Assembly (NCBI GenBank): GCA_041648735.1
Contig: JBAZOO010000003.1
Location: forward strand, 53,670 to 117,669
Direction: 5' to 3'
Source: Lentisphaeria bacterium
Lineage (GTDB): Bacteria > Verrucomicrobiota > Lentisphaeria > Oligosphaerales > CAITYL01
DNA: 64,000 nt
The position numbers and the translations under genes were made by a program. This document shows, piece after piece, positions 6,721 to 41,024 of this stretch; within the stretch, counting starts at the first letter, position 1; each line of letters opens with the position of its first letter. Under the pieces are notes generated by a model, which was not told the DNA's origin, ran no database searches, and saw nothing but the letters and a program-made list of their open reading frames with translations.

Positions 6721-6763
6721 AAAAAACTGCGGGACCCAAAAATGCGACACCGGGGAGCACGCT

Positions 6764-7688: not shown

Positions 7689-7783
7689 TGGAAATGTACA
7701 CCAAAGAAAAAGAGCTGATGATTGTCGGATGACGGCACGATTGGTATAATGCAACCATCATAGTTCACAGAGATGCATAAAAA

Positions 7784-24348: not shown

Positions 24349-24435
24349 GCCCGCGGAGTCCGCGGCGGGGGAAGTGTTTTCTCCGGGGTTTCCGTGTGCG
24401 CCGCGCGAAGACCGGATTTGCCTGCCCCCGCAAGG
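24349..24435 (+). repeat. dispersed 87-bp repeat, copy B (left boundary of island)
   Basis: GCCCGCGGAGTCCGCGGCGGGGGAAGTGTTTTCTCCGGGGTTTCCGTGTGCGCCGCGCGAAGACCGGATTTGCCTGCCCCCGCAAGG is 86/87 identical to copy C (40919..41005), in the same orientation. It starts 77 nt after the tRNA-Pro 3-prime end. Confidence 0.9.
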
Positions 24436-24663
24436 CTTCATCCCCGGCGGCTTCCGCGCCAGCGTCGCCTGGCGCGCCACCAACTGCCGCTCCTCGTTGG
24501 CCGCGATCTCCCCGTTCAGCCGTTCGACCTCCGCGATCCGGTCGGCCATCAGCAACTGGCCGGGGTCATCCCCGGCCTGACGCTCCGACTTCCGCCCGAA
24601 AAGCCGCTTCGGCAGCTTCGCCACCAGCCGCTTGAGCCGGGCTCTCGGCGTCTTTGCGGTCAT
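24436..24663 (-). pseudogene. short ORF overlapping the DUF499 stop (ATGA); possible truncated IS66-like N-terminal fragment
   Basis: MTAKTPRARLKRLVAKLPKRLFGRKSERQAGDDPGQLLMADRIAEVERLNGEIAANEERQ... The LFGRKSE motif is reminiscent of IS66-family transposase N-termini. The frame stays open through repeat B and antisense across tRNA-Pro (to 24169), so there is no credible native C-terminus. Confidence 0.25.
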
Positions 24664-27600
24664 GTCACCCGGAATCCCGACTTCAGGTCCTCCAGGATCT
24701 TGTTGATCTCTGCGACCGTGCCCTCATCGGGAGTGTGTTCGGCATCGCCGACCTCGATGCGGACTCGGAACTTGATGGGGCAGCCCGACTTGCTCTTGAT
24801 GGCCAGGAGCTGGGGAACGGCGTCTCCGAGATCCTGGATCCCGGAAGGGTCAAGCTCCGCCTCTGCCCATTTGACATTGGTCTCGTGGACTTCCCTGCCA
24901 CCGGAACCACCGCCGTAGCCGCCGCCGTAGCCACCGCCCTTTCCGCCGCTCGTCGCGACCTTGAGCTTGACGCCTTGGGCGGAGGGGTACTCACACGGCC
25001 ACGAACCGGAGGTCGGATCCAGTTCCGTGAACCGGGCGTTCAGTGACGCCGCAATGACCTCGCGCACGGTCTTCCATGGGAGCGTCTTCCCTGACTTCTG
25101 CGACAACGCCGTGGCCACTGCGAGGGCAGTCGTCTGGTCGTTGGCCCATGCGTCCGGCAGGTTCGCGGGCAGGATCTCGGCGGCCGCGATCATCGCCGGT
25201 GGCCGTTGGAGAGAGGCCTGGTTGCTGAGCACCCCGGCAGGGATGGGTTCGCCGAGGATGCTCGCGGGCCCGCTCGTGAGCCAGAGCGCGCCCTCTTCCA
25301 CCGCCAGTGTGACGCCTGCCTTGACCACCTCCTCGCGGGCCTTGGGGATCGCCAGCGGCTCCATGTACCCATTCCGCTGGACCTGGACGATGTTGCCGCC
25401 CTTGAAGTAGTCCACCACGTCCTGCACGCTGATGGCCTCGCCCGGCCACAATCCGGGCAGGCGGCCAGGGGCAAGCAGGGCAGGCGGGATGTCTCCCAGT
25501 TCAGCCGCTTCCGGCAATACCAGTTCAAGCGCGGGATCAGCCATGGCCGCCTCGTCAGGGCGCGAGCGCCACCAGGTACGTACGGAACCGTCGGGACGGC
25601 TGAGTCTCAGCACGAACGATCCCGCGTCACACCCGGCGACAAGAGTGTCGGCGATGGCTTGGGCCTTCAGCATCTTGGGCAGGTGTGGCAACTGCGCGAA
25701 CGCCCCGGACAGGTCCTTGACGCGGCGGCTCGTCTCGCCCTCCCGCCACAGATTGTATGGGCCGTCCGGCAGTAGTGCCTCGGCGGTGATCGAAGAGTCC
25801 TGAATCCGGGATCGGGAGTCGTTCTTGACGATGGTGAAATGCGCGTCTTCGGTCACGTTGATCTTGAAGGCCTGCACCTCGTTCCTGTCCGAAACGGAGA
25901 CGACCGTGCAGTACGCCTGCTTCACCGCGTCGGGGATACGGCCCCGAGCCTTGTCGCTGCTGATGGTCAGGGTCTGCAGGCGCGCCACGTCGACGTTGCC
26001 GTCCTTCTCCTGCTCCTTCAGATCCGACCGGACTTCCTCCCATGCCAGATAGTCGCGGACCCTGGCCGACGCCACCTCCAGTCCGTCCCGCGACGGTGCG
26101 AGCAGGATCAGTGCATTGCGGTAAACCCGGGGTTTCTCCGGGCCGGTCGTCTCATCCAGGTAGCGTTTGGCCTCGGCGCTGGGTTTCCCCGAATCGCTGG
26201 TGGCGCTTGGCCCGAGGATGCCGAAGTGGAACGCTCCGTCGTCCTCGATGTCGCGCGGCCGCGTTGGCAGCAGGTGGACGCGGACGCCTGCTGCGGAAGC
26301 CCCGGCGCTCAGGGTCTTGCACTTGCCGACCTCATCGAGCAGTCGCGCCCGCACCACATCGTCGGACACCCGGCTTGCCGCCACGGCGTGCATCTGAGTC
26401 AAGTTGGGGCGATTCCCCAGCCGCCAGGTATCCGGCAGCAGGTTCTCCTCGGTGGCGGCGTACCGGTCGTCGAGCCAGAAGCTGGTCTGCGCCCAGCGCG
26501 TCAGTCCCTTCTCCAGTTCGATCCGGTCGGGACGGCTGGGGGCGATGAGCACCATCAGGTCCCGGGTGCGCGCACTCTGGCCAATCGGCTGGGAATGCAG
26601 GAAGGTGGCGACAACGGCCTGCTCGACCTCCCGGTAACGAAGCCCCACCGATTCCCGTTGGATGTCGCGAGCTTTGCCGGTCTCGCCTTCGATGATCCCC
26701 GTCCACGCCTGCTTCTTGCCCTCGTGCTCTTCGGTGTCCGCCACCGTCACCAGCTCCCGCATCGCCTCCGAAAGCCCTTCGCGCTTGGGGTCGGCGAGGA
26801 ACACGGCGGGCCCCACCAGGGGGCTGGTATCCCAGCGCTCCGCCTCCCGTAGCGCCAGGGCGAAGGTCCGCAAGACGCCCCGGGTTCGCTGGAAGCGATC
26901 CAGTTGCGTCCATTTCGCATAGAAGACTTCCGTGAGGTCGGGGTGGAACGGGTAACTCCTCAAGAAGCGCTCCTCGGCCTCCGCGCCCTGCTTCTTCGTC
27001 TGCTCGTCGATATCGAACACCCCCTTGATCGCCGCTTGGACGTGGGCGCGGAACGCATCCTTGTCCTTGATCGATTCGGGAGTGAAGAACCGGCGGCGCA
27101 GCACTTCGGCCACGTCCTCCTTCACCACGGGCTCGACGATGGCCTCGCGCTGGCGCTGGAAGATGTCGTACAGCTCGCCCTGCAACTGCCGCCCGAAGCT
27201 GTCGCTTTTCGCCGGATCGCTGGCCAGCAGCGAGGCCACGACACAGCAGCGGTCGACCTTGGTCGCGGCCTGGGTCAGGTACTGGAAGAAGTTCACCATG
27301 CGGTCGCGCCACTTGCGGTCGGCGGAGACCTTCTCCCGGACATACATCAGGACTTCATCGATCAGGATCAGCACGCCCAGACCTTCCTTGACCGGCAGTT
27401 CCAGCAGTTCGGTCAAGGTGTTCTCCGCCGGAGCGGACTCGCGTTCGTCTGGCGACTTCCCGGCATTGAGCACCCGCAGACCTTCCTCGCCCGCCAGTTG
27501 CCACGCCAGGATGCTCCACGGCTGCACCAGCCGCCGGGTGTTGCCCTGCGGGTTCCGCACCTCCATGCCGGTCTCGACATCCAGCTTGTCGAAGCACAGC

Positions 27601-28025
27601 CCGGCCACCCGCGCCCGCGGCGGAGCCTGGCCTGCCTGTGCGTCGCACGCAGACAGGCCGATGGCTTCCTGGAATTCATGCACGGCGGGCAGGTCGGGCA
27701 ACTTCTCCGGGTCGGTGACCAGGTGCCGGAGCGTGATCAGCGTGTGCGTCTTGCCGCCGCCGTAGGTCAGGCTGAGCTGGCGCACCGCCTTGTCGTTCTT
27801 GCCCGCCACCCGCAGCACCACGTCCCGCACCAGTTGGCGCAGGTTGTAGGTGGGGAAGGTCAGCGCAAAGAAGTTGCTCGGGTCTTCATAGGTGGGCCGC
27901 TTGCCGCCCTGCATCATGACTTCATACAGGTCCGCCGCGAACATGTGCAGCGGCAGTTCGCCGGACTTCAGGTCATCCCGCAAGGTGACGACTTCGTGCC
28001 AGCTCTTCCATGGGTTCTTAGCCAT
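24660..28025 (-). CDS. DUF499-type P-loop ATPase (BrxC/PglY-like)
   Basis: N-terminus MAKNPWKSWHEVVTLRDDLKSGELPLHMFAADLYEV....YEDPSNFFALTFPTYNL..L and Walker A LTYGGGKTHTLITLRHL, then Walker B-like VLILIDEVLMY. This is the pattern I recognise for DUF499/COG1483. AGGAGGA lies 8 nt upstream of ATG 28025. A Gly/Tyr-rich linker sits near the C-terminus. Confidence 0.85.
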   Translation of the reverse strand: MAKNPWKSWHEVVTLRDDLKSGELPLHMFAADLYEVMMQGGKRPTYEDPSNFFALTFPTYNLRQLVRDVVLRVAGKNDKAVRQLSLTYGGGKTHTLITLRHLVTDPEKLPDLPAVHEFQEAIGLSACDAQAGQAPPRARVAGLCFDKLDVETGMEVRNPQGNTRRLVQPWSILAWQLAGEEGLRVLNAGKSPDERESAPAENTLTELLELPVKEGLGVLILIDEVLMYVREKVSADRKWRDRMVNFFQYLTQAATKVDRCCVVASLLASDPAKSDSFGRQLQGELYDIFQRQREAIVEPVVKEDVAEVLRRRFFTPESIKDKDAFRAHVQAAIKGVFDIDEQTKKQGAEAEERFLRSYPFHPDLTEVFYAKWTQLDRFQRTRGVLRTFALALREAERWDTSPLVGPAVFLADPKREGLSEAMRELVTVADTEEHEGKKQAWTGIIEGETGKARDIQRESVGLRYREVEQAVVATFLHSQPIGQSARTRDLMVLIAPSRPDRIELEKGLTRWAQTSFWLDDRYAATEENLLPDTWRLGNRPNLTQMHAVAASRVSDDVVRARLLDEVGKCKTLSAGASAAGVRVHLLPTRPRDIEDDGAFHFGILGPSATSDSGKPSAEAKRYLDETTGPEKPRVYRNALILLAPSRDGLEVASARVRDYLAWEEVRSDLKEQEKDGNVDVARLQTLTISSDKARGRIPDAVKQAYCTVVSVSDRNEVQAFKINVTEDAHFTIVKNDSRSRIQDSSITAEALLPDGPYNLWREGETSRRVKDLSGAFAQLPHLPKMLKAQAIADTLVAGCDAGSFVLRLSRPDGSVRTWWRSRPDEAAMADPALELVLPEAAELGDIPPALLAPGRLPGLWPGEAISVQDVVDYFKGGNIVQVQRNGYMEPLAIPKAREEVVKAGVTLAVEEGALWLTSGPASILGEPIPAGVLSNQASLQRPPAMIAAAEILPANLPDAWANDQTTALAVATALSQKSGKTLPWKTVREVIAASLNARFTELDPTSGSWPCEYPSAQGVKLKVATSGGKGGGYGGGYGGGSGGREVHETNVKWAEAELDPSGIQDLGDAVPQLLAIKSKSGCPIKFRVRIEVGDAEHTPDEGTVAEINKILEDLKSGFRVT

Positions 28026-28073
28026 TATGCCAGTCCTCCTGCTCGGCATTGCGTCTTGGATTGCGTCTAACAA

Positions 28074-28154: not shown

Positions 28155-29804
28155 TCATAGCTTGGTGTCTTTCGTAGAAACGACGCAATCTGCCATAACA
28201 GTCATCGGGTACCATTTGCCGGCCCGTGTCGTTCCTTCCAGGCGAATACGGTTTTCGTGTTTGAGTTGCCGAACTAAAGCTTGTACTTGGCATCTGGACA
28301 GACTCGGCAAGACTTGGAGCAATTCTTCCAGGCGACTGCCAGTATTGGCATTGTCCCGAATATGTTTAAGCAGCAGCTCCTTGTTGGTTTCTCGGTCAAG
28401 GCCGCGCTTTCTGGTGTAAACGCCTTTTTTGCCGATGGTGGCATAGAACCGTCGTCCCAGAATAAAGCGTCCGTGCGCAACCCGTTCGATTACACCACGG
28501 TCAATCAGGAACGGAATCCGATCCCGCAGATTATCGGGAACTGGTTGATCGCGGCGGACATGGTTGACCACGAGAAAATCAGCCGTTCCAAAACTCTGAA
28601 GGGTCTCCAAGCCGATACGCTCCATCATGGTCAACAGTTTAGGGTCTTGAACCAGACCGTCTAAGGTCAAGGTCACATGCATGCGATCCGTGCCTCTGAA
28701 GTCCGGGAGAGCTTTGGCCTGCTTGACGCTCAACTCGAACATCAGGTTCATCCCCTGCCCCGATCGTTCGACAAGGCCACAACGCGCCAGGATGTCGGCG
28801 ATCCGCCGGTTGCGTGGCGACTGCCGATCCAGGATGTTTTCCAGGGTGATGTCCGGCGGGAAACCACCGGGGCTGTCCACAACGAGCCGTTGCGGGTACT
28901 GGCGAACGAAGACGGGGCCGCCCAACTGGTAGTCGCGGTGGCACACGGCATTCAGCACGGCTTCGCGCACGACCCGTTCATCAAAGGTGAGCACATCGAA
29001 AACGAAGAGTCCGTCCTGATAGTGCTGCTTACTGTTGCGCAGATTAATCAATTCCCACAGCCGGTCGTGAAACGCGAAGAGACCCTGCCGGAACTCATCC
29101 CGCTGTTGAGCCGGACCCGATGCTTCATTGGCCCGGTATTCAAAAATCACCTCGGCCTGCCCAAGCAGACGGCCAAGAGCCTCCCGACGGCCAAAGAGGG
29201 TTAGGGCGGCATAGGTGACACCCTTGTCGGTGATCGCCTCGCAGTCAAGCAGCAACTGCTCCTGCGACTTTGCCGCTATGCCTGAAGATCTCGACTTCTC
29301 CAGCCACTTTCGCCTGAACGCTTCAATGGCATCGCCGTCCAGATCGGTCAGGTCAGCCCCCTTGCATATGTCCGCCGAGAAATCATGACCGACTTCGGCG
29401 AAGATCGCCCGCATCTCCTCCATCGGCATCTCGACCAGACTGTCGCCTTCCCGCCACCAGGTGATCCCCTTGTCCTGGATGGGCACACCCACCGGACGCG
29501 GCGGGATGTCGAACACCAGTATGCGTTTGCCCTCGTGATTGAGCAGATGAAAGTCGACCCGCAGCCGCAACCGTTCCATCAGGCCATTGCGCGTCCGTTC
29601 CGGTTGTTCGAATGCCTTGCTGCCGACAACTTGGCGCGGGCGCTTGTCGGTAATCCCGAACACCACATAACCTCCACCCCGATTGGCCAGGGCGCAGGCA
29701 TACTTGGCCAGGTCGTCGAATTCAAAGGAGTTCTCAGCCCGTTTGAACTCGATATTTTCGCCTTCCTTGGCCTCCAACAGCCAAGCTATTTCGGGAACTC
29801 TCAT
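28155..29804 (-). CDS. COG2865-type regulator: AlbA_2/Schlafen-like N-domain + HATPase_c_4-like domain + C-terminal winged HTH
   Basis: EGENIEFKRAENSFEFDDLAKYACALANRGGGYVVFGI (AlbA_2 pattern), REAVLNAVCHRDYQLGGPVFVRQYPQRLVVDSPGGFP (HATPase_c_4 pattern), and a C-terminal helical wHTH-like region. The start overlaps the MTase stop (ATGA at 29801-29804). Sample lines are ~53-55% GC. Confidence 0.8.
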   Translation of the reverse strand: MRVPEIAWLLEAKEGENIEFKRAENSFEFDDLAKYACALANRGGGYVVFGITDKRPRQVVGSKAFEQPERTRNGLMERLRLRVDFHLLNHEGKRILVFDIPPRPVGVPIQDKGITWWREGDSLVEMPMEEMRAIFAEVGHDFSADICKGADLTDLDGDAIEAFRRKWLEKSRSSGIAAKSQEQLLLDCEAITDKGVTYAALTLFGRREALGRLLGQAEVIFEYRANEASGPAQQRDEFRQGLFAFHDRLWELINLRNSKQHYQDGLFVFDVLTFDERVVREAVLNAVCHRDYQLGGPVFVRQYPQRLVVDSPGGFPPDITLENILDRQSPRNRRIADILARCGLVERSGQGMNLMFELSVKQAKALPDFRGTDRMHVTLTLDGLVQDPKLLTMMERIGLETLQSFGTADFLVVNHVRRDQPVPDNLRDRIPFLIDRGVIERVAHGRFILGRRFYATIGKKGVYTRKRGLDRETNKELLLKHIRDNANTGSRLEELLQVLPSLSRCQVQALVRQLKHENRIRLEGTTRAGKWYPMTVMADCVVSTKDTKL

Positions 29805-32800
29805 GCCTGTTCCTCCAGTGCGAAACGACCCTGTTTGTCATCCTTCACCGCCCCGCGTGCGCCGATGTGGTTGCTGAGGCTTTCCAGTAATGTACGCTCT
29901 TCGCTGCCACGCTCGGACAGCTCGATCAGGGACTGGACGAGGCGGCGGAACAGCTCGTGGCGGCGGAGGCCATTGTCGTCCAGGTATTCGTCGACCTTGT
30001 GGACGTCGCCCGCCCGCCAGAGGTGCATGAGCCGATGGATGCGGTCGATCAGGGGGACCGGACGGCCTGCCTGCCGCGACGCACTCGGCGCAGGCAGGCC
30101 GCTCGGCGCATCATAGCCCATGTTCCGACCCTGGCGCTGCGACCACGGCTTGAGCCTCATCTGGCCGCCGGAACTGGTGCCGCCAGAGTCGCTGTCCTCA
30201 TCGTCGGACAGGTCGGACTCGTCAGACGCGTCGGACTCATCCGCAAGCGGGACGCTTGCGCCACCCTTGGTCGAGATCAGATCCCAGGTGACTTCAAGGT
30301 CGTGATCGGAGATCCCGCAGGCGGTGGCGTAGAGAATGCAGGCTCCGGCGGGGGCTTCCTCGAGCCCGAAGTCATGGCGGTGCAGCAGGTAGTAGGCGGT
30401 CGGGCTGTCCATGTCTCCCAAGGGTGGCGCAACCGTCCCGGTTGCGATCTCTCCGGATGGCAAGCGGGACGCTTGCCCCACCATTACCTCACCAACGACG
30501 AAATCCACCACCATGCGGCGCACGTGGACGAGGAACTCGCCCACGCTCATGATCTGGCCGGGATCGTTGGCCTTCTTGACCACCGGGTGTTTGCTGTAGG
30601 CCTCCAGCGCCGGGCCGGTCGCGGCCCAGACAAAGTCCGGCCCGCGAATCCCCGCGTCCCAGAAGTCCCGCAGCCGCGTCGTGATATTGGCCCGCATCTC
30701 CTCCAGCACCCGGTTGTCCCAGCCCAGCCTGGCGGCGGTGGGGCGCTTTCGGCAGACAATCCACAGGGAGGAGGCAAGGGCGGCGGAGGCTATGCCTCTT
30801 GTCCGGTTCGCCATCTCTGTCTGGATCGGCCAACTGCCGTCGACGATGAAACCCGCCCGGATTATCGCCGACGCCAGCGTCTCCCATGCATCAGGATGCT
30901 TGTGAGCGAAAACAATGACGAGGCGGCCATCCGGCTGGAGGCTCTTCTCGCAGGCCACGAAGGCCCGCGCCATGCCGTCCTCGTAGGCAGCCTTGGACTT
31001 CTCCGCATCGCCGCCGTGGCGGCTGGAATCGTCGATCAGTTCACCGTCATTGGCCTCACGGTCCCATTTCGGCGACGTACTCGCCGCGAAGACCGAGGAA
31101 GGATCCAGCCGCGTGCCATGGACAACCCGTTTGATCCAGACGTAGAAGAAATCCATGCAATCGGAATAGGGAATGGCATCGTAGTAAGGCGGGTCCGTAA
31201 GAACAAGATCAAAGTTGCCAACAACGGTTTCTGTTGCTGAACGCTTCTGCACGGTCGGCTTGGCCAGATCACCTCCGGTATTGACCGCCGTATCAACTGA
31301 CCTGGTTACCGATCCCAGCATCGACTCCCAACTGCCTGATGCACCACCGATAGGATTAGTCTCGGCACAATCCCACTTGATCGGCAGGGCAAAACGGTTG
31401 AACAAGTGCGTGATCTGTTCGTTCTGGGTGTACCAGGATGCCAAGGAGCTTCCATAGTCAAGCATCTTGCTCATAACGCAGGCCAGATATGCCGCAGCGG
31501 CTTCGCGCCAGTCGGGCGGCAAGGCGGCGTCGCTGGTGGCGGTGACGCCCCGGATCTGCCGCACCAGCGTCCCCAGCGCCAGCAACTGCCGCGAGGTGAA
31601 CAGGTCGCACCACCGCATAAGGCCATAGCCCTGGATGGAGAACGCCCGACCCGCGCCACTGCCGCCCCCGGCGGGTGTGGGTTCCGTGGGCAACCCAAAC
31701 GGGATCTCGGCGAAGACGCGCTCAAGTTCGGCTGCGGCGCGGCTGGCGCAGTCGATCTCATGGGCGGTCGGTAGACGGTAGGCTTTGCTGGTCTGGCTCT
31801 CGGTGACCACGGCGGTGGCGACCATCCCCAACCGTCCGGCTTTGCCCTCGAACCGGATGTCCTCCATGGTCATGATGGCCGAGCAGCAGGGACACTGCGC
31901 CCCGGCCCGGGACATGGTGCCCGCGCCGATCCGCTTGTCGTGCTCGCGGCGCTGGGCGGCGTTGCCTCCCTGGGCCGGGACATCGGCGTCGATGCCAAAG
32001 ACCAGGGTGGGGCAACCGTCCCGGTTGCCATCTTCCTGCTCCACCTTCGCAAGCGGGACGCTTGCGCCACCCTTCACCTCCATGGTCAGCAGCACGCGCT
32101 TGTTGGCCTTCTTGCAGAGCCACCGAGTCTTGAGCAGCGGCACGGTAGCCCGGCAGTTCTTGCAGGTGACTGTGCGGGCCCAGAGATAGGCGACCGTCGG
32201 CTTGGCCACCCAACGCGGGTTCCGCTTGTCCGCCAGGTACTCCGCCGAGAACTCGGCGTTCAGCGCCTCGAGGTTCGGAGTGCCGTCGTCCTTGAGCGGC
32301 ACCAGACGCATCAAGGGTGGGGCAAGCGTCCCGCTTGCCTTCTTCTGAAAGCTCCAGAGCTGCTCGACCCTGGCCGTGTCGTACTCGCCCGCCCGAGCAC
32401 TCCCGACAACCGGGTTGTTCATGATGTACTGCTCGATCCGCCACAGGGACTGCGGACTCCGCACGATATGGTCGTAGCTCTCGTGCTGCCAGAACTCGCC
32501 TTCCCGGCCAAGGAGCTTGTTGATTGCATGGGCGGTGAAGGACTTCCAGGAATGCAGCACGTCGGAGAGGGTGTGGTTGTCCCTCGGTCTGACCAACGCA
32601 TGGACATGGTTGGGCATAATGCACCATGCCCCCAAGTCGTACCGACTCCCATCGAAATGCATCAAGGTGTCCGCGACGATCCGGCGAACCTGCGGACTCC
32701 GCAGATGGCACTCGCCCTCGCCAGCGTCCAGCCATGCCTCCATGCGATCATTGAAGAGACGGTAATACTCTTTGCGGAGTTCGGGGGTCAGTTCCGACTC

Positions 32801-33946
32801 CGGGTGAGCCGCCAGCCACGCTTCCCGTTCGCGTCGCCATTGTTCGAGTCTTGGCTTTGGGATGGAATCCGCAAGGCGGAAGGTGACAAAGAAGGCTGTG
32901 CCGGGCTGTGTCCAGTGGGGCAGCCGGCGTTCTCGGATATCGACTGGTTCGTAGGGATTGAAGTACAGAGTATCGTTGGCCCAAGATGATGGTGGGGCAA
33001 GAGTGGGGCAGCCGTCTCGGTTGCCATTTGCCTTTTCGGAATCCGCAAGCGGGACGCCACCCCTTTGCAGAGGCTCCAAGTGCGCGTAGGTCGGGTAGAA
33101 GGTTGCCAACTCCTTGCGCGCCTCGTTCAGCACCCAGCGTCCCCAGGCGCGGACGTGCCAGGCGAGGTCGGCCTTGGGGGCGCGCCCGGAGTCCGGCTTG
33201 ACGAAGCCCGGGATCCAGCTCTCATCTTCCCTGAGCTGTTTCCTCGTCTTCTTCGTGCGGCCGACCAGCTCCGGGTGCGCCCGGTAGAACTCCTCCATGA
33301 AGGCTTCGTCGGCGAGGATGAAATCCGGCAGCGGATGGGTCTTGCCCGCCAGCTTCTGCGGGTACTCCAGCGTGCACTTGAGGATGAACCAGGCGACCGG
33401 GTTGATGTCCACCGCCGTCGCCTCGCAGCCGAGCCGCATCGCCTCGAGCGGGATGGCCCCGCCACCCGCGAACGGGTCGAGCACGCGCGGCGCGCGGCCG
33501 CCATAGGCCTTGCGGATTTCGTCCCGGAACCATTGCAGTTCCTGCTCCCGGTGCGCGACGATCGCCCGGTGCTCCTTGAGCTTGCTCGCACCGCCGGATT
33601 TCGGCTCGGTGCCGATCCAGTTCAGGATGCCGCCCTCGACTTCCTCCTTGACCACCTCAATCACCTTGCCATCCGGCATCTTCTTGCGCTCGGTCGTCTC
33701 CACCACCTTGCCGCCGATGCGCTCGCACAGATCCCGGCGTTTCTCCGGCGTTCCCGGGTCGGGCAGCAGCGTCGCGATCAGCGCCGCCCGGCAAGCCGCC
33801 AGCGGCCGCCGCGCGGGCCAGATGTGCAGCGTCGAGATATGCCCATGCCGCACATTCTTCTCATGCACCGAAGTCAGCGACGCCTGCTTCAGCGGGAAGG
33901 CGTGCTCGATCAGGCGGGGGGAGTCATTGGATGGAATAGTTGACAT
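29801..33946 (-). CDS. DUF1156 / COG1743-type amino-methyltransferase with Zn-ribbon, carrying an in-frame RAYT domain and in-frame REP insertions
   Basis: N-terminus [43 protein letters not shown] (DUF1156 hallmark). SAM motif I [15 protein letters not shown] (33443-33484), Zn-ribbon CKNC...CPCC, motif IV [10 protein letters not shown] (DPPYY at 31181-31195). At 1381 aa it is about 400 aa longer than I expect for the family; the excess is explained by the insertions listed separately. Confidence 0.85.
   Translation of the reverse strand: [1381 protein letters not shown]
30242..30266 (+). repeat. REP1 half element (unit A-prime) inside MTase CDS
   Basis: CGCAAGCGGGACGCTTGCGCCACCC, with hairpin GCAAGCG-GGA-CGCTTGC. 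It encodes [10 protein letters not shown] in the MTase frame. Confidence 0.8.
30423..30482 (+). repeat. REP1 full element inside MTase CDS
   Basis: GGTGGCGCAACCGTCCCGGTTGCG ... GCAAGCGGGACGCTTGCCCCACC, two ~24-nt units in inverted orientation, each an internal hairpin. It encodes [21 protein letters not shown] in frame. Confidence 0.85.
32006..32072 (+). repeat. REP1 full element inside MTase CDS (between the two halves of the Zn-ribbon)
   Basis: GGTGGGGCAACCGTCCCGGTTGCC ATCTTCCTGCTCCACCTT CGCAAGCGGGACGCTTGCGCCACCC. It encodes [25 protein letters not shown] (aa 625-647), and the nucleotide and amino-acid coordinates agree. Confidence 0.9.
32317..32340 (+). repeat. REP1 half element at the downstream edge of the embedded RAYT
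   Basis: GGTGGGGCAAGCGTCCCGCTTGCC. It encodes [11 protein letters not shown] in the MTase frame. Confidence 0.8.
32991..33063 (+). repeat. REP1 degenerate full element at the upstream edge of the embedded RAYT
   Basis: GGTGGGGCAAGAGTGGGGCAGCCGTCTCGGTTGCCATTTGCC...CGCAAGCGGGACGCCACCCC, with a partial duplication and a 5-nt deletion in unit A-prime. It encodes [27 protein letters not shown]. Confidence 0.75.
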
Positions 33947-35083
33947 CTATGAAAGGGCCTCCACGAGAGAGAAAGCGTCCGCCAATGTGGCGACCGAAGA
34001 TCCGGGGTAGCGACGCCATGAACCTTGCCCATGCTTAGAACGTTCAACTACGACTTCCTGTCCAGTCTTGCCGGCCTGTCGCACGCGCCAATCCCATCGG
34101 CGCCAGTCCGAGGCGGTGTAGACTCCCGCCTCGTCCGCAAGCCAGTTCGGTACGGTGATGCGGGTCAAGTCGGATAGGAATTCAGACGCGGAACGAGGAC
34201 GCTTGCTGCAGTCTGGATTGGTGGTAGCCCGCACCAGCCGGGACAGTTTGCTGGAGAAGTACGGCCGGGGCGTCCTCCCGTGCTCCAGCAGTTTGCCCCG
34301 ACGTGAAAAGTCAGCGATGCCATCGTCCACTGCACGAGACTTCTCGAAAGAATCCATCGTCGAGAAAGTCAGCTTCCGCCGGCGCAATTCCGCCTTCTTG
34401 GAACGGGAGAGGTAGTGCTCGTCATGGTAGTCCAGTTGACCGTTCACCAGTTCGTACAAGACCATTCCCACTTGGTAGAGATCGGATTGGGTCAAGTACT
34501 TGGACGGCGTTTCCCATCCCTCTGGCGGAACGTATAGAACGGAGTGCTTGGATGCCTGGATCGGTTGGTCATCCCCGGCCAGCAATGCCACCGACCCAAA
34601 ATCAGAAATTCGCGGGGTGTTCCCATGAAGCAGGATATTCGCTGGTTTGAGGTCGCGGTGGACCATCTGCTGCAAGTGTAGATGGGCAACCCCGGTCAGG
34701 ATACCCGCTGTTACCCTGACCGCGTCCTGTTGACCGAGGGGACCGTCAGATATCTTCCCGAGCAGGCTAACCCCAGAGACATATTCCATCTGAAGACACA
34801 GGAACTGGGATGAGTTAACCGTCATGATCTCGGCATCAAATACTTGAACCAAGTTCGGGCAAAGGGATGGGGCTTTCGTCGCCTCCACAAGCAGTCGTGG
34901 CTCGCGCAGCACACCGGAGCGATTTTCGTGTATGTAGTCATAGACCTTGAGGAAAACATCCCGGTCAAGGTGCGTGTGGCGGGCTTTGAACGCGAACGCA
35001 TTCGCACCTTCGTGGATCTCCACTAGATCGGCATACTTTCCCGTAGCCTTCAAGGCATCACTGATCTGACCGGTTGTCGCCAT
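33947..35083 (-). CDS. Ser/Thr protein kinase (Hanks-type) with uncharacterised C-terminal domain
   Basis: VFLKV (VAIK-like Lys), catalytic loop VHRDLKPANILL, DFG as ISDFGSV, PPE (APE-like), DLYQVGMVLYEL. The stop TAG abuts the MTase ATG (33947/33946). Start MATTGQ at 35083, 1 nt after the upstream stop. A sample line is ~48% GC. Confidence 0.85.
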   Translation of the reverse strand: MATTGQISDALKATGKYADLVEIHEGANAFAFKARHTHLDRDVFLKVYDYIHENRSGVLREPRLLVEATKAPSLCPNLVQVFDAEIMTVNSSQFLCLQMEYVSGVSLLGKISDGPLGQQDAVRVTAGILTGVAHLHLQQMVHRDLKPANILLHGNTPRISDFGSVALLAGDDQPIQASKHSVLYVPPEGWETPSKYLTQSDLYQVGMVLYELVNGQLDYHDEHYLSRSKKAELRRRKLTFSTMDSFEKSRAVDDGIADFSRRGKLLEHGRTPRPYFSSKLSRLVRATTNPDCSKRPRSASEFLSDLTRITVPNWLADEAGVYTASDWRRWDWRVRQAGKTGQEVVVERSKHGQGSWRRYPGSSVATLADAFSLVEALS

Positions 35084-35084
35084 C

Positions 35085-35531
35085 TTACATGACACTCCAC
35101 GCGCAATATGTGGCTCTTTCGACATATTTCAATGCTATCGGTTTTCCACCCCAGAAGGCCGCCTCCATCGTTGCACCCGCCGTGCCCGCGAATTTCTTCT
35201 GCTTGCTGGCAACCGTCTGCGGTGCCACAAGAAGACAGGGTACACTTGCCTGCTTTGCCGCCAACTGGACTACGCATTCCATCTTGCACCGAGAGACCGA
35301 ACAACCTTTATCAACTGCTCGCAATACGGCCACTTTTTCGATCTTCTTGTCACGAATCACCGCATGGACAATGTCTTTCAGCCGCAAGAGGTTCCCCGCG
35401 TCATCATTTTCAGACTGGGGAAATGGTTGCTTTGGCACATCGAGGTTCTCAGCCCTCCCGCCACTGGCGGTACCGTCCAAGATGACCCAGACCAAGTCAG
35501 AGGCATGGATATCAACACCGAGTACTCTCAT
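35085..35531 (-). CDS. small RNase H-fold / RuvC-like protein (DUF3010-like, tentative)
   Basis: MRVLGVDIHASDLVWVIL (beta-strand with Asp, like the first strand of RNase H-like folds), KIEKVAVL....CKMECVVQLA. The resemblance to DUF3010 is from memory only. 148 aa, lower GC, abuts the kinase gene. Confidence 0.45.
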   Translation of the reverse strand: MRVLGVDIHASDLVWVILDGTASGGRAENLDVPKQPFPQSENDDAGNLLRLKDIVHAVIRDKKIEKVAVLRAVDKGCSVSRCKMECVVQLAAKQASVPCLLVAPQTVASKQKKFAGTAGATMEAAFWGGKPIALKYVERATYCAWSVM

Positions 35532-35558
35532 TGCCGGCTCCTTGTTGTCTTATCACTG

Positions 35559-35712
35559 TTACACCACCCCCGCTTCGGTCACTTGCTGCTGCGAGATGCT
35601 TACCCCACCCGTCTCAATCGTGGCCGTGATCGTTCGGGTGACGGCTTGGCTCTTGCTGAACGGGCGGACGAGCAGCTTGTCGAACGGATCCTGCACCCGC
35701 ACGAGTTGCAGT
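35559..35712 (-). repeat. orphan duplicate of the helicase 3-prime end (~154 bp)
   Basis: Aligns with 36817..36970 and includes a 46-bp identical block GGCTCTTGCTGAACGGGCGGACGAGCAGCTTGTCGAACGGATCCTG; overall identity is ~80-85% by eye. It encodes [48 protein letters not shown], versus the helicase C-terminus [48 protein letters not shown]. Confidence 0.85.
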
Positions 35713-35720
35713 GACGCGCG

Positions 35721-35734
35721 CACGGCGTGCCGTG
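35721..35734. repeat. REP2 palindrome (degenerate) downstream of RAYT2
   Basis: CACGGCGTGCCGTG, a variant of CCACGGCATGCCGTGG. Confidence 0.6.
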
Positions 35735-35792
35735 GGCGTACCGATGGGACAGCGCTAGGTGCCCCAAGTGCGCGGGATAGGGGGGGGGCAAG

Positions 35793-35808
35793 CCACGGCA
35801 TGCCGTGG
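35793..35808. repeat. REP2 palindrome downstream of RAYT2 stop
   Basis: CCACGGCATGCCGTGG, a perfect 16-bp palindrome, 26 nt beyond the RAYT2-SLOG stop. Confidence 0.8.
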
Positions 35809-35833
35809 CCGTGCGGATGGGGACTGGGGGGCA

Positions 35834-36814
35834 TCATAGGTACACCACCTCCTTTTCCGGGTTGGCCTCGGAGAGGAGGCAGGCGAGCATGCCGTCGGGG
35901 TTGAGGTTGCCCACGACGAGGCGGTCGCAGTGCTCGATGACGTACTGGTTGCACCAGACGGCGCGGCGGGCGTTGGGGGTATCGAGCCCGGCATCGAAGG
36001 GTGAGGCCAGCAACAGGCGCCCCTCGGCCAGGGCCACTTCCGCAGCACCACGGCATGCCGTGATGCCACCAACGGCATCCAACCCCCAGGGCACGACCCA
36101 GACCATGGGGCGGCGGTGTTCGAGGCAGGCCTTGAACACCGCCTGCTCCATGGGCGAGAGGAAGCCGGAAATGACCGCTTCGCCGGGCTTGAGCGGCAGC
36201 CTGCCATGCGGGTTCTCCTCGCCACGCGAGGCGAGGAAGCCCACCTTTGGCAGGTCCAGAAGGGCGCGGTTGCCGAGGTACTGTGGCTCGGCGCCCTGCA
36301 TGACAGCGGCGAAGTTCTCGGGATTGTGGCGAATGTAGGCACGAATGTTCTCTCGCGCGGCATCGTCGCGGGCCCGCATGTCGTAAAACCGGCTCTGCCA
36401 GAGCTTCTCCCCGAGGGCGCGGGTGACCGCGCCCTTGTACGAGCGCAGGATGGTTGGTATCGAGCCGGCCACTGGCTTGCCGAAGGCCTCCATACGGGCA
36501 CGGCATGCCGTGGCCCCACGTGCCGTGGCCCCGACGAGTTGCAGCAGGCCATGCACATGATTGGGCATGACCACGTACTCGTCCAAAACGGCCCGAGGGA
36601 AATGCGCCGGGATTTCGCGCCAGCACCGGTCCGCGACCTTGCCGGCCTCGTTCTGCACCATGTGCCCGCTGACGACCGTGCCGAAGACCGAGCGCATGTT
36701 CTGGGTGCAGATGGTGAGGAAATACCAGCCGGGGCTGGAGTAGTCCCAGCCCTGGAGGCGGAGGTTCTTGCGGCGCCCCACGGCATGCCGTGGGGGCGCG
36801 GAAAGCGTCGGCAT
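35834..36814 (-). CDS. RAYT (IS200/IS605-type Y1 HUH transposase) fused to a DprA/SLOG-like Rossmann domain
   Basis: N-terminal half: LQGWDYSSPGWYFLTICTQN, HUH VMPNHVHGLL, Tyr motif LWQSRFYDMRARDDAARENIRAYIRHNP. C-terminal half: VGFLASRG.....AVISGFLSPMEQAVFKACLEHRRPMVWVVPWGL...ALAEGRLLLASPF......RRAVWCNQYVIEHCDRLVVG, which resembles DprA/SLOG topology by eye. The ATG at 36814 lies 2 nt after the helicase stop. Confidence 0.7.
   Translation of the reverse strand: MPTLSAPPRHAVGRRKNLRLQGWDYSSPGWYFLTICTQNMRSVFGTVVSGHMVQNEAGKVADRCWREIPAHFPRAVLDEYVVMPNHVHGLLQLVGATARGATACRARMEAFGKPVAGSIPTILRSYKGAVTRALGEKLWQSRFYDMRARDDAARENIRAYIRHNPENFAAVMQGAEPQYLGNRALLDLPKVGFLASRGEENPHGRLPLKPGEAVISGFLSPMEQAVFKACLEHRRPMVWVVPWGLDAVGGITACRGAAEVALAEGRLLLASPFDAGLDTPNARRAVWCNQYVIEHCDRLVVGNLNPDGMLACLLSEANPEKEVVYL
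36048..36062. repeat. REP2 palindrome inside RAYT2-SLOG CDS
   Basis: CCACGGCATGCCGTG. Confidence 0.7.
36499..36528. repeat. two adjacent REP2 palindromes inside RAYT2-SLOG CDS
   Basis: CACGGCATGCCGTG (36499-36512) and CCACGTGCCGTGG (36516-36528). They encode GATARGATACR. Confidence 0.7.
36776..36795. repeat. REP2 palindrome, perfect 20-mer, at the 5-prime end of RAYT2-SLOG
   Basis: CCCCACGGCATGCCGTGGGG, within codons 7-13 of the gene (PPRHAVG). Confidence 0.85.
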
Positions 36815-36816
36815 GG

Positions 36817-39800
36817 CTACACCTCCCCCGCTGCGGTCACTTGCTGCGGCGAGATGCGCACTCCGCCAGACTCGACCGTCGCCGTGATCGTCCGGGGGAC
36901 GGTCTGGCTCTTGCTGAACGGGCGGACGAGCAGCTTGTCGAACGGATCCTGTACCCGAACCAGTTGCGGGGTCGGGGTAGCGCAGTGATAGGCCACGTAG
37001 AGCCAGTAATCGTCGCGCAGATTGCAGGCGCGGGCCCACTCGTTGTCGGTGACTTCGATCTCGCCGATGGATGCCCGCCCCTTGACCTCGATGCAGCGGC
37101 GATCAAAGGTGGGGCAACCGTCCCGGTTGCCATCTGCGGAGTTCGCAGGCGAGACGCTTGCGCCACGCTTTGGCCGCAGCGAAAGGATGTCGAACCCCGG
37201 ATTCTCGGGAAGCCCCGCAGCGCGGGCGAGTTCGGGCGTATGGACAAAGCGCACGTCCGCCCCCGACGCTTCCTCGTAGGCCTTGACCAGGTTCATGGCG
37301 ATCTGTTCGACGTTGGCATCGAGCCGTTCGCGGTCGGCCTTGGCGGCGGAGGGCACAACGAGGGCATGGGCGATGAAGTCCGTGTTGCCGGGCACCAGCA
37401 GCTCCGGTTCGCGGCGGATGATCGCCAAGGCCCGGTCCCGACGGTCGTGCAGTTCGCGCTGCTGATCCTTGATCCGGGAGAGTTCAGCGGCGGCCCCCTT
37501 GTTCCCGTCCCGCGCTTTCGGGGTGAGCTTGGCCCGCGAGGCCGCCAGTTCCGCTTCCTGGAAGTCGAAGCCACGTTCCACAAAGGACTCACGCTTGGGC
37601 AAGGCGGCCATCATCTGGTTTCGGCGGTCGACGGCCATCCCACGGCAGACCCGCTCCATGAGGTAGGCGTTGGCTTGATCGCGCAGCTTGGTTGCCGCCA
37701 CGGCCAGGCGCTGGGCCTGCGGAGGCAGCCCTTCGCCACCGCGCAGGAGCAGCAAGTGTTCCACGGGGCACAATGAAATGTCGGCCCCTTCGGTCTGACG
37801 GACTCCGACGAGACGGCACACGACGGTTTCCTCGTGAGCCAGTCGAGAAGGTGGGGCAACCGTCCCGGTTGCCGTCTTGTCGGTTGCGGAGTTCGCACGC
37901 GGGACGCTTGCGCCACACTCGGGATCGGCTTTCCGTACCACAGTCAGGCGGGCCAGGTGGAAGAGGTAGGGTTTGTCCGCCGTGGGATCGACAAAGACGG
38001 CACCCCGGAGGGCGTCCCGCCCCAGCCGCTGTCGCACCAGTTCGCGGAAACGCTCGAAGACCGGCTCGCCGGGATGCATCCAGATGCAGGACTGCCGGCC
38101 TGCCGGCGCCGCGCCCGTCGCGGCAGGCAGGTCATCCGGGCGCTGGACAGAAAGGTGCCGCGACATGGTGGGCGAATAGGCGTCCATGGCTTCAAACAGT
38201 GGATCGGCCGCCCCTTTCCTGGCGGGCACGAGATCGAAGGTTGAGCCGAGATCGCCGTCCACTTCGATGCCGACCTGCGGGGCGGCCGATTCCACAAAGC
38301 GGCGGACATAGCCGGGGAGCAGGCGGAAGAACGTTTCATGCTCGATTCCCTCGCGCAGGCGCGGCAGTTCTCTTTTGACGTCCCCGCCATCGCCATAGAG
38401 GCGCCGCTCGCGTTCCTCGATGGCCTTGACCTGTTCCTTGGTCAACTGACCGTCGAGTTCCTCGGCCACGGCCTCGGCTCCGTCCCGCAGCGCCCGCTCC
38501 ATGTAGTCCTTGATCGAGACCCCCACGAACACGCGGCCGATGCTGTCGAAGACCTTGTCGGACTTGAGCTGCTTACGGATCTTCTCCAGCTTGTCGAGCA
38601 GCGTCTTGAGCACTCGGCCTTCGCGGGTCGCGGGGGCGATCAGGTTGACGATGCACACGGGATCGTGTTTCTGCCCGTAGCGATGAATCCGCCCCATGCG
38701 CTGTTCAAGCCGGGCCGGGTTCCAGGGGATGTCGTAGTTGACCATGATCCAGCAGAACTGGAGGTTGACGCCCTCGGCGGCGGCATCGGTACAAACCATC
38801 AGCCGCGCTCCCCCCTCGGCGGCGGGAAGGCGGAAACGCTCGATCTGGTCTTGGCGCTCCGTGAAGTGCATGCCGCCGTGAATCTGGGCGATGTGGCCCG
38901 CGTATCCCATGCCGCCGAGTCGGCGCACCAGGAAGTCCATGGTGTCGCGATGCTCGGTGAAGATGAGCATCTTCTCCTGGACGTAGCGGCTGTCCGTGAT
39001 CACTTCACGCAGTCGGTCGAACTTGGACTCGACTCCGGCGTCATGGACGTGCTGGGCGAGGTTACGAAGCGCGACGACCTGTTCGCGTTCCGCGAGGAGT
39101 TCCGCCAGGGACTCGGCGATGACTCCCTGGAGCAGCGTGTCTTCGGCCGCCTCATTCTCCTCGACCCCTTCGGTGGTGCTCTCCTCGTCGGCCGCCTTCG
39201 ACTCGAAGACATCGTCGTCCTCTTTGATCCGGCACTGAAGGGTGAGCAACTGTTCGATGGTGAGTCGTCCAGCCTGGATGTCCTCGATGATCTGGTCCAG
39301 CTTGCCGAGACGACGTTTGAAGGAACACAGCAGCGCATAGGTCGAACTGGCCAGGCGGCGCTGGAACACCCCCATGGCCAGGCGGGCGGCGGACTGGTTG
39401 AGCACCTTGGCCTTGTTGTAGACGTGGCGCAGGTACTCGGTGGTCTCGTCGTAGAGACGCTGCTCACCGACTTCGCCAGCGGAAAGCTGGAAACCGAGGG
39501 TGTCGCATTGCCGGATCGGGTACAGAGGCTGACCGTCCAGGCGAACCATCTCCTCCTTGGTACGGCGGATGAAGTAGTGCTGCCGTCGCTCGGTCGGGAA
39601 GTGCTCGAAGGCCTCGAGCGTCGTCAGGACGTCGGGTTCGAGCAGCCGCCAGAGCGCGTAGTACGGGTAGTCCTTGCCCATGTGCGGCGTGGCGGTCAGG
39701 AGAAGCAAGTGGTGGGCATGCCATGGCAGAGAAAAGGTGGGGCAACCGTCCCGGTTGCCATCTTTCGTGGGGCAACCGTCCCGGTTGCCATCTTTCGCAA

Positions 39801-40671
39801 GCGAGACGCTTGCGCCACCATTGTAGACACCCGCGAGAGCCTCGGCGAGTTTATAGCGGGATGTCTTTCGGATACGGAAGTCGTTGCCACGGTCACAGGC
39901 GAGCTTGTGCGCTTCGTCGAAGACGACCAGCTCGTAGGGCGCAACGGCATCTTCGGCCAGCCGCGCGAAGACGCGTTCCCCCGCCAACGTATCGACACTT
40001 ATGATGACGCGCTCGCTGCCGGGGCCAGCGAATGGATTCCCGTTCTTCGCGTCCTGCCCGGTGACAATGCGGAATGGCAGGTTGAAGAGGACCTGCAGTT
40101 CCCGCTGCCAATTGCCGACCAGTCCAGCCGGAGGCACAATCAGCACGCGGGACAGCAGTCGCCGCGACAGCATCTCGCGCACGTACAGGCCGGTCATGAT
40201 CGTCTTGCCCGCGCCCGCGTCGTCGGCCAGCAGGAAGCGCAACCGGGCATGCGGCAGCATCCGGTCGTAGACTGCGATCCGCTGATGCGGCAGCGGATCG
40301 ATACTCGAGATCTCGGTGGCGAAGGTGGGGTTGGCCAGGTGGCCGAAGGATAGGCGCTCGCCTTCGACCAGAACGCGGACCACTTCAGGCTTCGCGGTGA
40401 AGTCCAGCAGCGGCGGTTCCGCAGTGCAGGGCGGCGGCTCCGGCTCAGCGCCCCCCGACCCTGCGGCCCTTTCCTTGTCGCCCTCGTCCTTGCTGAGATC
40501 GAGGATGGCTTGCCAGGACAACTGCGATGGACGCGACTTCCCGTTCTCCCACCGGTTGACCGTGGGGAACGACACTCCCAGGCGTTCGGCCAGGGCGACC
40601 TGCGTCAGCCCCAGCTTCGCCCGCAGACCCTTGATCTGCTCTGGATAGTCGTCTGTCATTCCGTCCGCCAT
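36817..40671 (-). CDS. XRE-type HTH + SNF2-family helicase + C-terminal DUF3883-like (PD-(D/E)xK-like) domain
   Basis: HTH [33 protein letters not shown]. Helicase motif I [13 protein letters not shown], motif II [9 protein letters not shown], motif III [8 protein letters not shown], motifs V/[13 protein letters not shown]...[24 protein letters not shown]. C-terminal [36 protein letters not shown]. Start at ATG 40671 (alternatives 40659 or 40779). Carries three in-frame REP1 elements. Confidence 0.85.
   Translation of the reverse strand: [1284 protein letters not shown]
37108..37166 (+). repeat. REP1 full element inside helicase CDS (C-terminal nuclease-like region)
   Basis: GGTGGGGCAACCGTCCCGGTTGCCATCT...CGCAGGCGAGACGCTTGCGCCAC. 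It encodes [23 protein letters not shown]. Confidence 0.85.
37850..37916 (+). repeat. REP1 full element inside helicase CDS
   Basis: GGTGGGGCAACCGTCCCGGTTGCCGTCT...CGCACGCGGGACGCTTGCGCCAC. It encodes [24 protein letters not shown]. Confidence 0.85.
39736..39819 (+). repeat. REP1 element with tandemly duplicated unit A inside helicase CDS (between helicase motifs II and III)
   Basis: GGTGGGGCAACCGTCCCGGTTGCCATCTTTC GTGGGGCAACCGTCCCGGTTGCCATCTTTC GCAAGCGAGACGCTTGCGCCACC. It encodes [31 protein letters not shown]. Confidence 0.9.
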
Positions 40672-40918
40672 GTCCGAAAGCTGCCTCCAGTTGGGTGGCA
40701 AAAGAACATGAACCAGACTATAGCGTCTGATATATCGCCGGCCAAGCCCCCACGCGATGACTGCCACCGGCCGACCCATGCAGGCCCCGCGCAGGCCCGC
40801 ATCGAACAGCTTCGGGCGCGGTCATGGAAGCCGGCGGCGGCTTGGCTGGCGACCGTCGGAGAAGGGTCGGAAGGCGGCGCGCGCCCAATGACCTCTCCGA
40901 GGGCAAGGCGGGGTGTTT

Positions 40919-41005
40919 GCCCGCGGAGTCCGCGGCGGCGGAAGTGTTTTCTCCGGGGTTTCCGTGTGCGCCGCGCGAAGACCGGATTTGCCTGCCCCCG
41001 CAAGG
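40919..41005 (+). repeat. dispersed 87-bp repeat, copy C (right boundary of island)
   Basis: Identical to copy B except G/C at the 21st base, in the same orientation. It lies between the helicase upstream region and yjbQ. Confidence 0.9.
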
Positions 41006-41024
41006 CCCGCCGGGCCGGGGCCGC

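Follow-up and report, generated by a model that had tools for sequence, protein, structure and literature searches.

What is a protein kinase gene doing, together with a small gene immediately upstream of it, between the core genes of a bacterial defence locus? The question is raised by a 64,000-nucleotide (nt) stretch of contig JBAZOO010000003.1 from a Lentisphaeria metagenome-assembled genome (MAG), referred to below as the window, whose positions are used for all coordinates. In this stretch a 148-amino acid protein of the DUF3010 family and a 378-amino acid Hanks-type Ser/Thr kinase are encoded one after the other within an Hma locus. To our knowledge, phage defences based on kinases are few, and little is understood of how they work. 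The reading we favour, with a probability of about one half, is that the pair forms an autonomous, horizontally mobile, kinase-based cassette of the abortive-infection or toxin–antitoxin (TA) kind, carried as embedded cargo in the HmaA/HmaB hotspot, in which the kinase would act as effector and would have in the RuvC-fold protein a regulator or sensor. The defence role, the identity of the effector and the signal sensed are what we infer here, from the evidence set out below.

The kinase gene is paired with a DUF3010 gene

All genes of the region lie on the minus strand in the list of open reading frames (ORFs) of the window. As read from the sequence, a single nucleotide (G, 35084) lies between the stop codon of the 148-amino acid gene and the ATG of the kinase gene, and the stop codon of the latter abuts the ATG of the HmaB methylase gene (33946). 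A mechanical ORF list places the kinase start further out, at ATG 35125. However, since 50 homologues begin at the alignment column of ATG 35083, the latter is probably the true start and ATG 35125 is not. A scan for promoters and terminators detected no terminator-like site, either within the pair or where it meets the adjoining genes; over the same region it returned two weak consensus matches, one promoter-like and one terminator-like (the latter in a 326-amino acid ORF upstream of the pair), which is no more than in shuffled sequence.

The pairing recurs at related loci. Twelve independent family loci were available besides the window (L001, L002–5, L006–7, L008–9, L010, L011, L012, L094, L095, L096, L097 and L103–4), giving a sample of ~13 contexts out of >500 homologues. 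In a profile search, a DUF3010-like gene was found directly upstream of the kinase gene in all 12, as in the window, and at the related loci it usually overlaps the kinase gene by 4–14 nt. The preliminary description of this DNA had noted the 1-nt gap and the contact with the methylase gene, had supposed that the two genes behave as a module, and had proposed co-occurrence of the small protein with kinases as a check; both the layout and the adjacency at every related locus examined agree with it. As a negative control for DUF3010 adjacency we used 160 loci centred on generic or unrelated Hanks kinases. These came from metagenome and IMG/VR scans with a kinase alignment, which used generic kinase motifs and yielded only unrelated Hanks kinases of ~30% identity. 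A DUF3010-like neighbour was present at one of the 160 (L021, positions 380–1860), and it was a weak one: an ORF of 152 amino acids, very divergent and with His in place of the acid at position 7, which precedes by 4 nt the gene of a conventional Hanks kinase whose GxGxxG loop is normal. This single case hints that the arrangement of a small RuvC-fold protein and a kinase reaches beyond the family studied here.

The two proteins have also diverged together. Matrices of pairwise identity for the DUF3010 protein and for the kinase correlate strongly (r = 0.96, Mantel p = 2e-4), which shows both proteins to be inherited as one unit. With the adjacency at all 12 loci, the pairing is real and specific. 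On the side of the small protein the family comprises ~50 DUF3010-like clusters (50% identity, E <1e-10), and on the side of the kinase >120 full-length homologues of ~375 amino acids with 40–80% identity. Named members of the pair come from Lentisphaeria, Verrucomicrobia, Acidobacteriaceae and Methylotenera; in the last, a canonical DUF3010 gene is followed by a gene for a related 364-amino acid kinase and lies beside an integrase gene and BrnT/A. DUF3010 without a kinase was found in Pseudomonas and in Dissulfurispiraceae, and no kinase without DUF3010 was seen among the family loci examined. Of the three loci that the DUF3010 alignment picked up in a genome scan, L013 (Photobacterium) was discarded, being a false positive in a RidA-repeat protein.

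The genomic contexts of the pair are varied. It stands alone at L002–5 and L008–9, and at L096, where an integrase gene is near; it adjoins an integrase gene at L103, an AIPR gene and BrnT/A at L006–7, and HicAB at L010. At L094 it lies inside a type I restriction–modification (RM) operon, in the order hsdM–AbiEi–pair–hsdS–hsdR. Finally, L011 (a Verrucomicrobia MAG) and L095 carry it within an Hma locus, in the same slot between HmaA and HmaB that it occupies in the window. At L001 the contig end falls inside the kinase gene.

The kinase is predicted to be catalytically competent

The kinase matches the Pfam Pkinase family with 111.7 bits (E = 5e-32; cut-off 31.7 bits) over residues ~20–300, and NCBI annotates the identical protein as 'protein kinase'. 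It contains the motifs VHRDLKPAN, DFG, YVPPE and SDWRRWDWRVRQ, together with an atypical glycine-rich loop, EGANAFAF. Residues K46, E61, H142-R143-D144, K146, N149, D161-F162-G163, P186-P187-E188, D201 and R295 are invariant in 50 homologues. The protein is thus, by its sequence, a Hanks-type Ser/Thr protein kinase with the full set of catalytic residues, and is predicted to be active; the earlier claim that all catalytic motifs are present holds for these homologues as well.

A C-terminal domain was also claimed, with a length of ~120 amino acids. The domain exists, but it is shorter than that (~75–80 amino acids), as the Pkinase match extends to residue 300. It is specific to the family. In an AlphaFold2 model, with a predicted local distance difference test score (pLDDT) of 88, it consists of four or five β-strands, forming a small antiparallel sheet, followed by a helix. 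A Foldseek search of this domain against the PDB gave no significant match (best E 0.58).

The partner has a RuvC-like fold but few of the residues of a RuvC nuclease

The 148-amino acid protein is a single-domain protein that matches Pfam DUF3010 (PF11215) over residues 1–114 (32.3 bits; cut-off 25), and an identical MAG protein is annotated by NCBI as 'DUF3010 family protein'. It represents a divergent subfamily, with ~24% identity to the canonical Methylotenera member, which a profile search connects to the canonical members. An AlphaFold2 model built on a 60-sequence alignment (pLDDT 96.3, predicted template-modelling score 0.90) has the topology β-β-β-α-β-α-β-α. Its best Foldseek matches in the PDB are RuvC of D. 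radiodurans and of T. thermophilus (E 9e-10 to 1e-7, TM-scores 0.66–0.72), followed by RuvX, Ydc2 and poxvirus resolvases, and in the viral library BFVD the best matches are phage RuvC-like resolvases. The sequence profile likewise reaches D. radiodurans RuvC (E 6e-4), with MRVLGVD aligned to MRVLGID. Neither PHROGs nor PADLOC-DB v2 contained a match for the protein. These predictions indicate an RNase H/RuvC fold with RuvC topology, which the preliminary description had anticipated.

Does the fold make the protein a nuclease? The catalytic centre of RuvC is a tetrad of carboxylates, D7, E66, D/H138 and D141 in the E. coli numbering. When the tetrad was looked for in the 148-amino acid protein, one of the four (D7) aligned. 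The position of the RuvC Glu, after β4, corresponds to L70/K-R71 in the family, with Lys or Arg at 71, and the last helix lacks a conserved Asp, the conserved residues there being Y136, A140, C143 and W145. Even the remaining acid is variable: position 7 is acidic in 37 of the 60 DUF3010-like sequences of the window family, and in the L094/L010 clade, where the kinase is still present, it is A or T. What is conserved instead is a family-specific K-x-E-x3-Q motif on helix 2, which the window protein shares. In the 60-sequence alignment E85 does not vary at all and R81, K83 and W145 hardly do, and Q89 is highly conserved; in canonical DUF3010 proteins (n=94), D/E7 and the K, E and Q of K83-x-E85-x3-Q89 are 98–100% conserved. 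A nuclease activity of the RuvC type is therefore doubtful, and a non-RuvC catalytic site possible. With a single one of the four carboxylates retained, and that one lost in a kinase-paired subclade, the earlier label of a putative small nuclease is doubtful.

The same residues bear on the alternative that survives best, although we consider it unlikely: that the kinase senses infection by means of its C-terminal domain and then switches on the RuvC-fold protein, a DNA or RNA nuclease effector gated by phosphorylation. Such a role would suit the RuvC-like fold, the strong conservation of D/E7, K83, E85 and Q89, the basic character of the DUF3010-family proteins (the 148-amino acid protein included; isoelectric point ~9), and a domain private to the kinase that could serve as sensor. 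It would also agree with a computational classification in which DUF3010 was placed in the RNase H-like superfamily, grouped with nucleases resembling Holliday-junction resolvases and credited with 'active site residues similar to exonucleases' (PMC3985635). However, non-acidic residues stand at three of RuvC's catalytic positions, the acid of the fourth has been lost in a subclade that has kept the kinase, and solitary DUF3010 genes reside in stable chromosomal contexts in Pseudomonas with no obvious controller, which would be unexpected for a toxic nuclease.

A kinase effector with a RuvC-fold regulator would fit the asymmetry of the pair

In the reading that we favour, the kinase is the effector and the small protein its control. 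On infection the kinase would phosphorylate host or phage proteins, in the manner reported for Stk2 and PD-T4-6, for which the presumed logic is that phosphorylation of many targets leads to abortive infection. Its basic RuvC-fold partner, which would be made in fixed proportion to the kinase via translational coupling, would be an obligatory regulator or sensor rather than a RuvC-type resolvase, and might recognise branched phage DNA or a phage protein.

This assignment of roles draws on an asymmetry between the two genes. The kinase would seem to be the costly component, because DUF3010 occurs alone and the kinase was never seen alone, and because the two decayed loci L097, where the kinase gene is split by IS21, and L012 (an Acidobacteriaceae MAG), where it is frameshifted, have each kept an intact DUF3010 gene. 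Furthermore, since the kinase-paired L094/L010 subclade does without the acid at position 7, the small protein is more readily seen as regulator or sensor, and the kinase as effector. A bolder and more specific proposal, which we regard as speculative and rather unlikely, is that a catalytically remodelled resolvase-like protein responds to intermediates that arise when phage DNA recombines or replicates, or to a phage protein, and directly gates the kinase that executes abortive infection, constituting a new anti-phage class.

Several observations weigh against a mobile defence cassette with a kinase effector. The argument for a defence role is wholly one of guilt by embedding or association. 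At several loci (L002 and L008) the neighbours are ordinary, metabolic genes. None of the phage, plasmid and IMG/VR collections searched contained the pair: tblastn of the 148-amino acid protein against plasmids and phages, and an IMG/VR scan with the DUF3010 alignment, returned nothing. Only the patchy distribution of the pair and the integrase and insertion sequence (IS) genes near it speak for mobility. In addition, D/E7 and K83-x-E85-x3-Q89 could form an active site of a non-RuvC kind, which would make the small protein the effector. Lastly, the asymmetry is drawn from few loci, and at L095 it is the small gene that is frameshifted.

The pair is embedded in an Hma defence locus

The three core genes of an Hma system, HmaA, HmaB and HmaC, are all present and co-oriented around the pair (Table 1), and by their profile matches the locus is an Hma defence system, in keeping with the defence context proposed in the preliminary description. 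Hma defends against phage T4, and its hmaA/hmaB junction has been described as a hotspot at which further defence genes insert (Liu et al. 2024, PMC11232893). Embedded genes occur in 63% of Hma systems, seven of the nine embedded cassettes tested are defences, and mobility genes make up ~3% of the embedded genes (Payne et al., bioRxiv 10.1101/2024.01.29.577857). A second embedded gene, with a Schlafen-type domain, lies between HmaB and HmaC in the window; bacterial Schlafen-domain proteins have recently been reported as anti-phage effectors (PMC12330615).

Table 1. Features of the Hma locus and of the embedded pair (positions in the window, listed in the direction of transcription)
Feature	Position	Strand	Evidence and remarks
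HmaA, SNF2 helicase with N-terminal HTH_3 and C-terminal NOV_C nuclease domain	36817..40779	-	PADLOC HmaA 1e-142; Pfam Helicase_C, SNF2-rel_dom, NOV_C 5e-13, HTH_3
326-amino acid ORF between HmaA and the pair	35834..36814	-	Weak IS200-like Y1_Tnp N-terminal match, Pfam E 0.0046, below cut-off
Relic of an HmaA helicase 3' end (last 49 codons and stop), next to the pair on its upstream side	35559..35716	-	157-nt direct repeat (35560-35716) of 36818-36974, 86% identity
27-nt spacer with Shine–Dalgarno sequence AAGGAG, 6 nt 5' of the ATG of the 148-amino acid gene	35532..35558	-	Read from sequence
148-amino acid DUF3010-family gene, RuvC-like fold (predicted)	35085..35531	-	Upstream member of the pair; ATG 35531, TAA 35087-35085
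378-amino acid Hanks-type Ser/Thr kinase gene	33947..35083	-	Downstream member of the pair; ATG 35083, TAG 33949-33947
Kinase catalytic domain, residues ~20-300	34184..35026	-	Extent of Pfam match
Family-specific C-terminal domain of the kinase, ~75-80 amino acids (residues ~304-378)	33950..34174	-	Motifs VPNW and W-x-G-W-D-W; kept in all full-length homologues
HmaB, 1381-amino acid DUF1156 adenine methylase with in-frame Y1_Tnp insertion	29801..33946	-	PADLOC HmaB 4e-115; Pfam DUF1156, MethyltransfD12, Y1_Tnp 5e-8
Second embedded gene, 549 amino acids, SLFN_AlbA_2 and HATPase_c_4, between HmaB and HmaC	28155..29804	-	Pfam; GC3 0.665
HmaC, DUF499 AAA+ ATPase	24660..28073	-	PADLOC HmaC 4e-74; Pfam DUF499 9e-23

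The base composition of the pair sets it apart from the Hma core genes. Its G+C content (GC) is 0.53 for the 148-amino acid gene and 0.57 for the kinase gene, as against 0.64–0.66 for HmaA, HmaB and HmaC, and at third codon positions (GC3) the difference is larger (0.58 and 0.66, as against 0.80–0.84). Across the 64 kb, 5.6% of windows of 1585 nt are as GC-poor as the pair. The lower GC that had been described is therefore confirmed, but the figure of ~48% given with it fits single 60-nt lines of the pair, which range from 0.43 to 0.70, and not the average of either gene. A further low-GC stretch (~0.55), the most GC-poor part of the window, lies at 6000–10000. Because of the low GC3, and of the relic helicase tail that lies beside the pair, the pair was probably acquired separately from the Hma core genes, as had been suggested from its composition. 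It had also been described as wedged between helicase and methylase genes: the contact with the methylase gene is real, but on the other side the 326-amino acid ORF and the relic intervene before the helicase gene.

How did the pair come to occupy one slot in three Hma loci? The closest relative of the L011 pair is the stand-alone pair L096. Since the Hma-embedded pairs do not group in the identity matrices, their distribution argues for repeated independent insertion, or for cassette exchange, and not for vertical descent of a single 'Hma-plus-kinase' subtype.

An autonomous cassette need not be a defence. Defence loci might be no more than permissive hotspots for a selfish TA or addiction module, or for an ordinary signalling pair, with no role against phages. 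The layout is suggestive in this respect, as a small upstream gene that overlaps or abuts the gene for a larger downstream enzyme is typical of type II TA systems, and the asymmetry seen in solitary and decayed copies is suggestive too; other TA pairs, IS elements or integrases are frequent neighbours, and the mobility genes found among Hma-embedded genes also allow for passengers of this kind. Nevertheless, we judge this explanation improbable: four of the ~13 loci lie inside bona fide defence operons and are co-oriented with them, most of the Hma-embedded cassettes that were tested proved to be defences, and TA and abortive-infection roles can coexist.

Least probable of all is that the pair is an accessory of a particular Hma subtype, its kinase regulating HmaA, HmaB or HmaC as PglW does in BREX type 2, for although three Hma loci of different lineages (the window, L011 and L095) share the exact slot and the tight row of co-oriented genes shows no terminator-like site in the pair or at its borders, most pairs are found away from Hma, one of them within a type I RM operon, the pair stands out by its GC3 as foreign to the window locus, the HmaA/HmaB junction is a general hotspot, and the Hma-embedded pairs are 41–45% identical to one another, compared with 48–49% between the window kinase and stand-alone pairs.

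Relics and repeats mark the surroundings of the pair

If the pair is embedded cargo, the sequence next to it may preserve signs of how it arrived. The relic directly upstream of the pair has its counterpart in the tail of the functional hmaA gene (36817–36974) and ends 27 nt before the 148-amino acid gene. The translations of the two copies match residue by residue (QLVRVQDPFDKLLVRPFSKSQ...). At the nucleotide level, the first ~75 nt of the copies are nearly identical and the rest has diverged. The relic shows the pair to have been, at one time, the direct neighbour of a helicase 3' end, and this sequence to have served for the recombination that brought in one or more of the embedded cassettes. 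The duplicated end of hmaA has the look of a scar, left when recombination exchanged such cassettes. As a physical mark of recombination in the 3'-terminal part of hmaA, it suggests a route by which cassettes could be exchanged between Hma loci.

Repeats of other kinds were seen in the locus. The 326-amino acid ORF between HmaA and the pair gave no match in a further Pfam scan, its C-terminal half being unassigned, and a palindrome, CCACGGCATGCCGTGG, occurs in five copies confined to the region of this ORF (35720–36814); the ORF may be a second element resembling REP-associated tyrosine transposases (RAYT; REP, repetitive extragenic palindromic). Two related 17-nt hairpin repeats, GCAACCGTCCCGGTTGC and GCAAGCGGGACGCTTGC, are present in 11–13 copies, compared with ~0.03 expected by chance. 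The copies lie within the HmaA (37114–39813) and HmaB (30243–33024) frames and nowhere else in the 64 kb, and they are in frame, encoding peptides of the types GGASVPLA and GNRDGCPTLAPP. Two of them flank the IS200-like Y1_Tnp domain of HmaB (~amino acids 340–520, Pfam 5e-8). By tblastn, the HmaB of the Verrucomicrobia locus L011 has no counterpart to ~amino acids 287–484 of the window HmaB, the region with Y1_Tnp. The arrangement resembles that of REP/RAYT-type elements which reside, in frame, within defence genes.

An 88-nt direct repeat, 99% identical between its copies (24349–24436 and 40919–41006), flanks the whole 16.6-kb Hma locus, one copy lying 77 nt downstream of a tRNA-Pro gene (24195–24272). 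Because these repeats flank the locus and one of them is beside a tRNA gene, the whole Hma locus may have entered as an integrated island. Among the ORFs checked there was no integrase gene.

Comparison with known systems

The pair emerges from this analysis as a well-defined candidate defence system and as a two-gene family that is directly testable. The argument for defence combines strict pairing, co-divergence and repeated embedding in Hma and type I RM systems. If it is correct, the orphan Pfam family DUF3010 would gain a functional context, and kinase immunity a RuvC-fold partner. Should the small protein be a sensor as proposed above, the pair would amount to an immune switch from DNA structure to phosphorylation, hitch-hiking in Hma and type I RM operons.

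Among known kinase systems, those of larger defence loci are the first to be compared. Like MAD6 of MADS and PglW of BREX type 2, the kinase is encoded in a defence locus that contains a methylase gene, and PADLOC mad6 is indeed its best-scoring kinase profile (7e-34). However, MAD6 and PglW are far larger multidomain proteins (PglW roughly 1400 amino acids), and the window locus lacks the remaining genes of MADS and of BREX. Of the eight locus proteins scanned, the only other match to a MADS profile was a weak one to mad2 (4.8e-08) over a 36-amino acid stretch of HmaB. PglZ was not found at the locus with PADLOC, and matches to PglX and BrxC were marginal. On curated cut-offs, identity with MAD6 (NCBIfam NF047741, 83.6 bits; cut-off 460), with PglW (NF033442, 40.3 bits; cut-off 990) and with PASTA kinases was rejected, and the comparison with PglW and BREX-2 made in the preliminary description is not upheld, nor is one with MADS. 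A pairing of the Bud32–Kae1 kind, that is of a kinase with an ASKHA-fold protein, was also considered and rejected. It was suggested by weak fold matches to Kae1 and YeaZ and a weak NCBIfam match to Bud32; the TM-score was ~0.45, as against 0.7 for RuvC.

Defences that consist of one Ser/Thr-kinase gene, PD-T4-6 (E. coli) and Stk2 (Staphylococcus), share with the pair the presumed logic of action given above. PADLOC profiles for PD-T4-6, which come with no score cut-offs in the library used, match the Hanks-type kinase domain with E-values of 1e-29 to 1e-11 over query residues 12–226; as the matches end at ~residue 226, what they show to be shared is the generic kinase core. PD-T4-6 and Stk2 are single-gene systems, whereas the kinase described here is coupled to an obligatory partner with a RuvC fold, and its C-terminal domain is a different one. 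That partner resembles RuvC and RuvX in its predicted RNase H-like fold, with the same order of strands and helices (TM-score ~0.7), and in the alignment of MRVLGVD with MRVLGIDPG of RuvC, first catalytic Asp included. It differs from them in having Lys or Arg in place of the catalytic Glu, in lacking the two carboxylates of the C-terminal helix, and in its own K-x-E-x3-Q motif.

As a pair, the two genes match no model in PADLOC-DB v2. The literature searched, the coverage of which was incomplete, held no description of the pair and did not link DUF3010 to a kinase or to defence; the supplementary tables of Payne et al. contain no mention of DUF3010 or PF11215. The pairing of a kinase with this small protein is thus new within these sources, as the preliminary description had supposed: embedding in Hma and kinase defences are already known, and the two-gene DUF3010–kinase family is not previously described in the literature searched. 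Its nearest likeness in organisation is to the Hma-embedded and defence-embedded candidate systems (HEC and PDC) of Payne et al. Like them it is short, co-oriented, placed between Hma core genes and of deviant composition, and it is also found stand-alone and inside a type I RM operon; unlike it, HEC-01 to HEC-09 encode neither a kinase nor a DUF3010/RuvC-fold protein.

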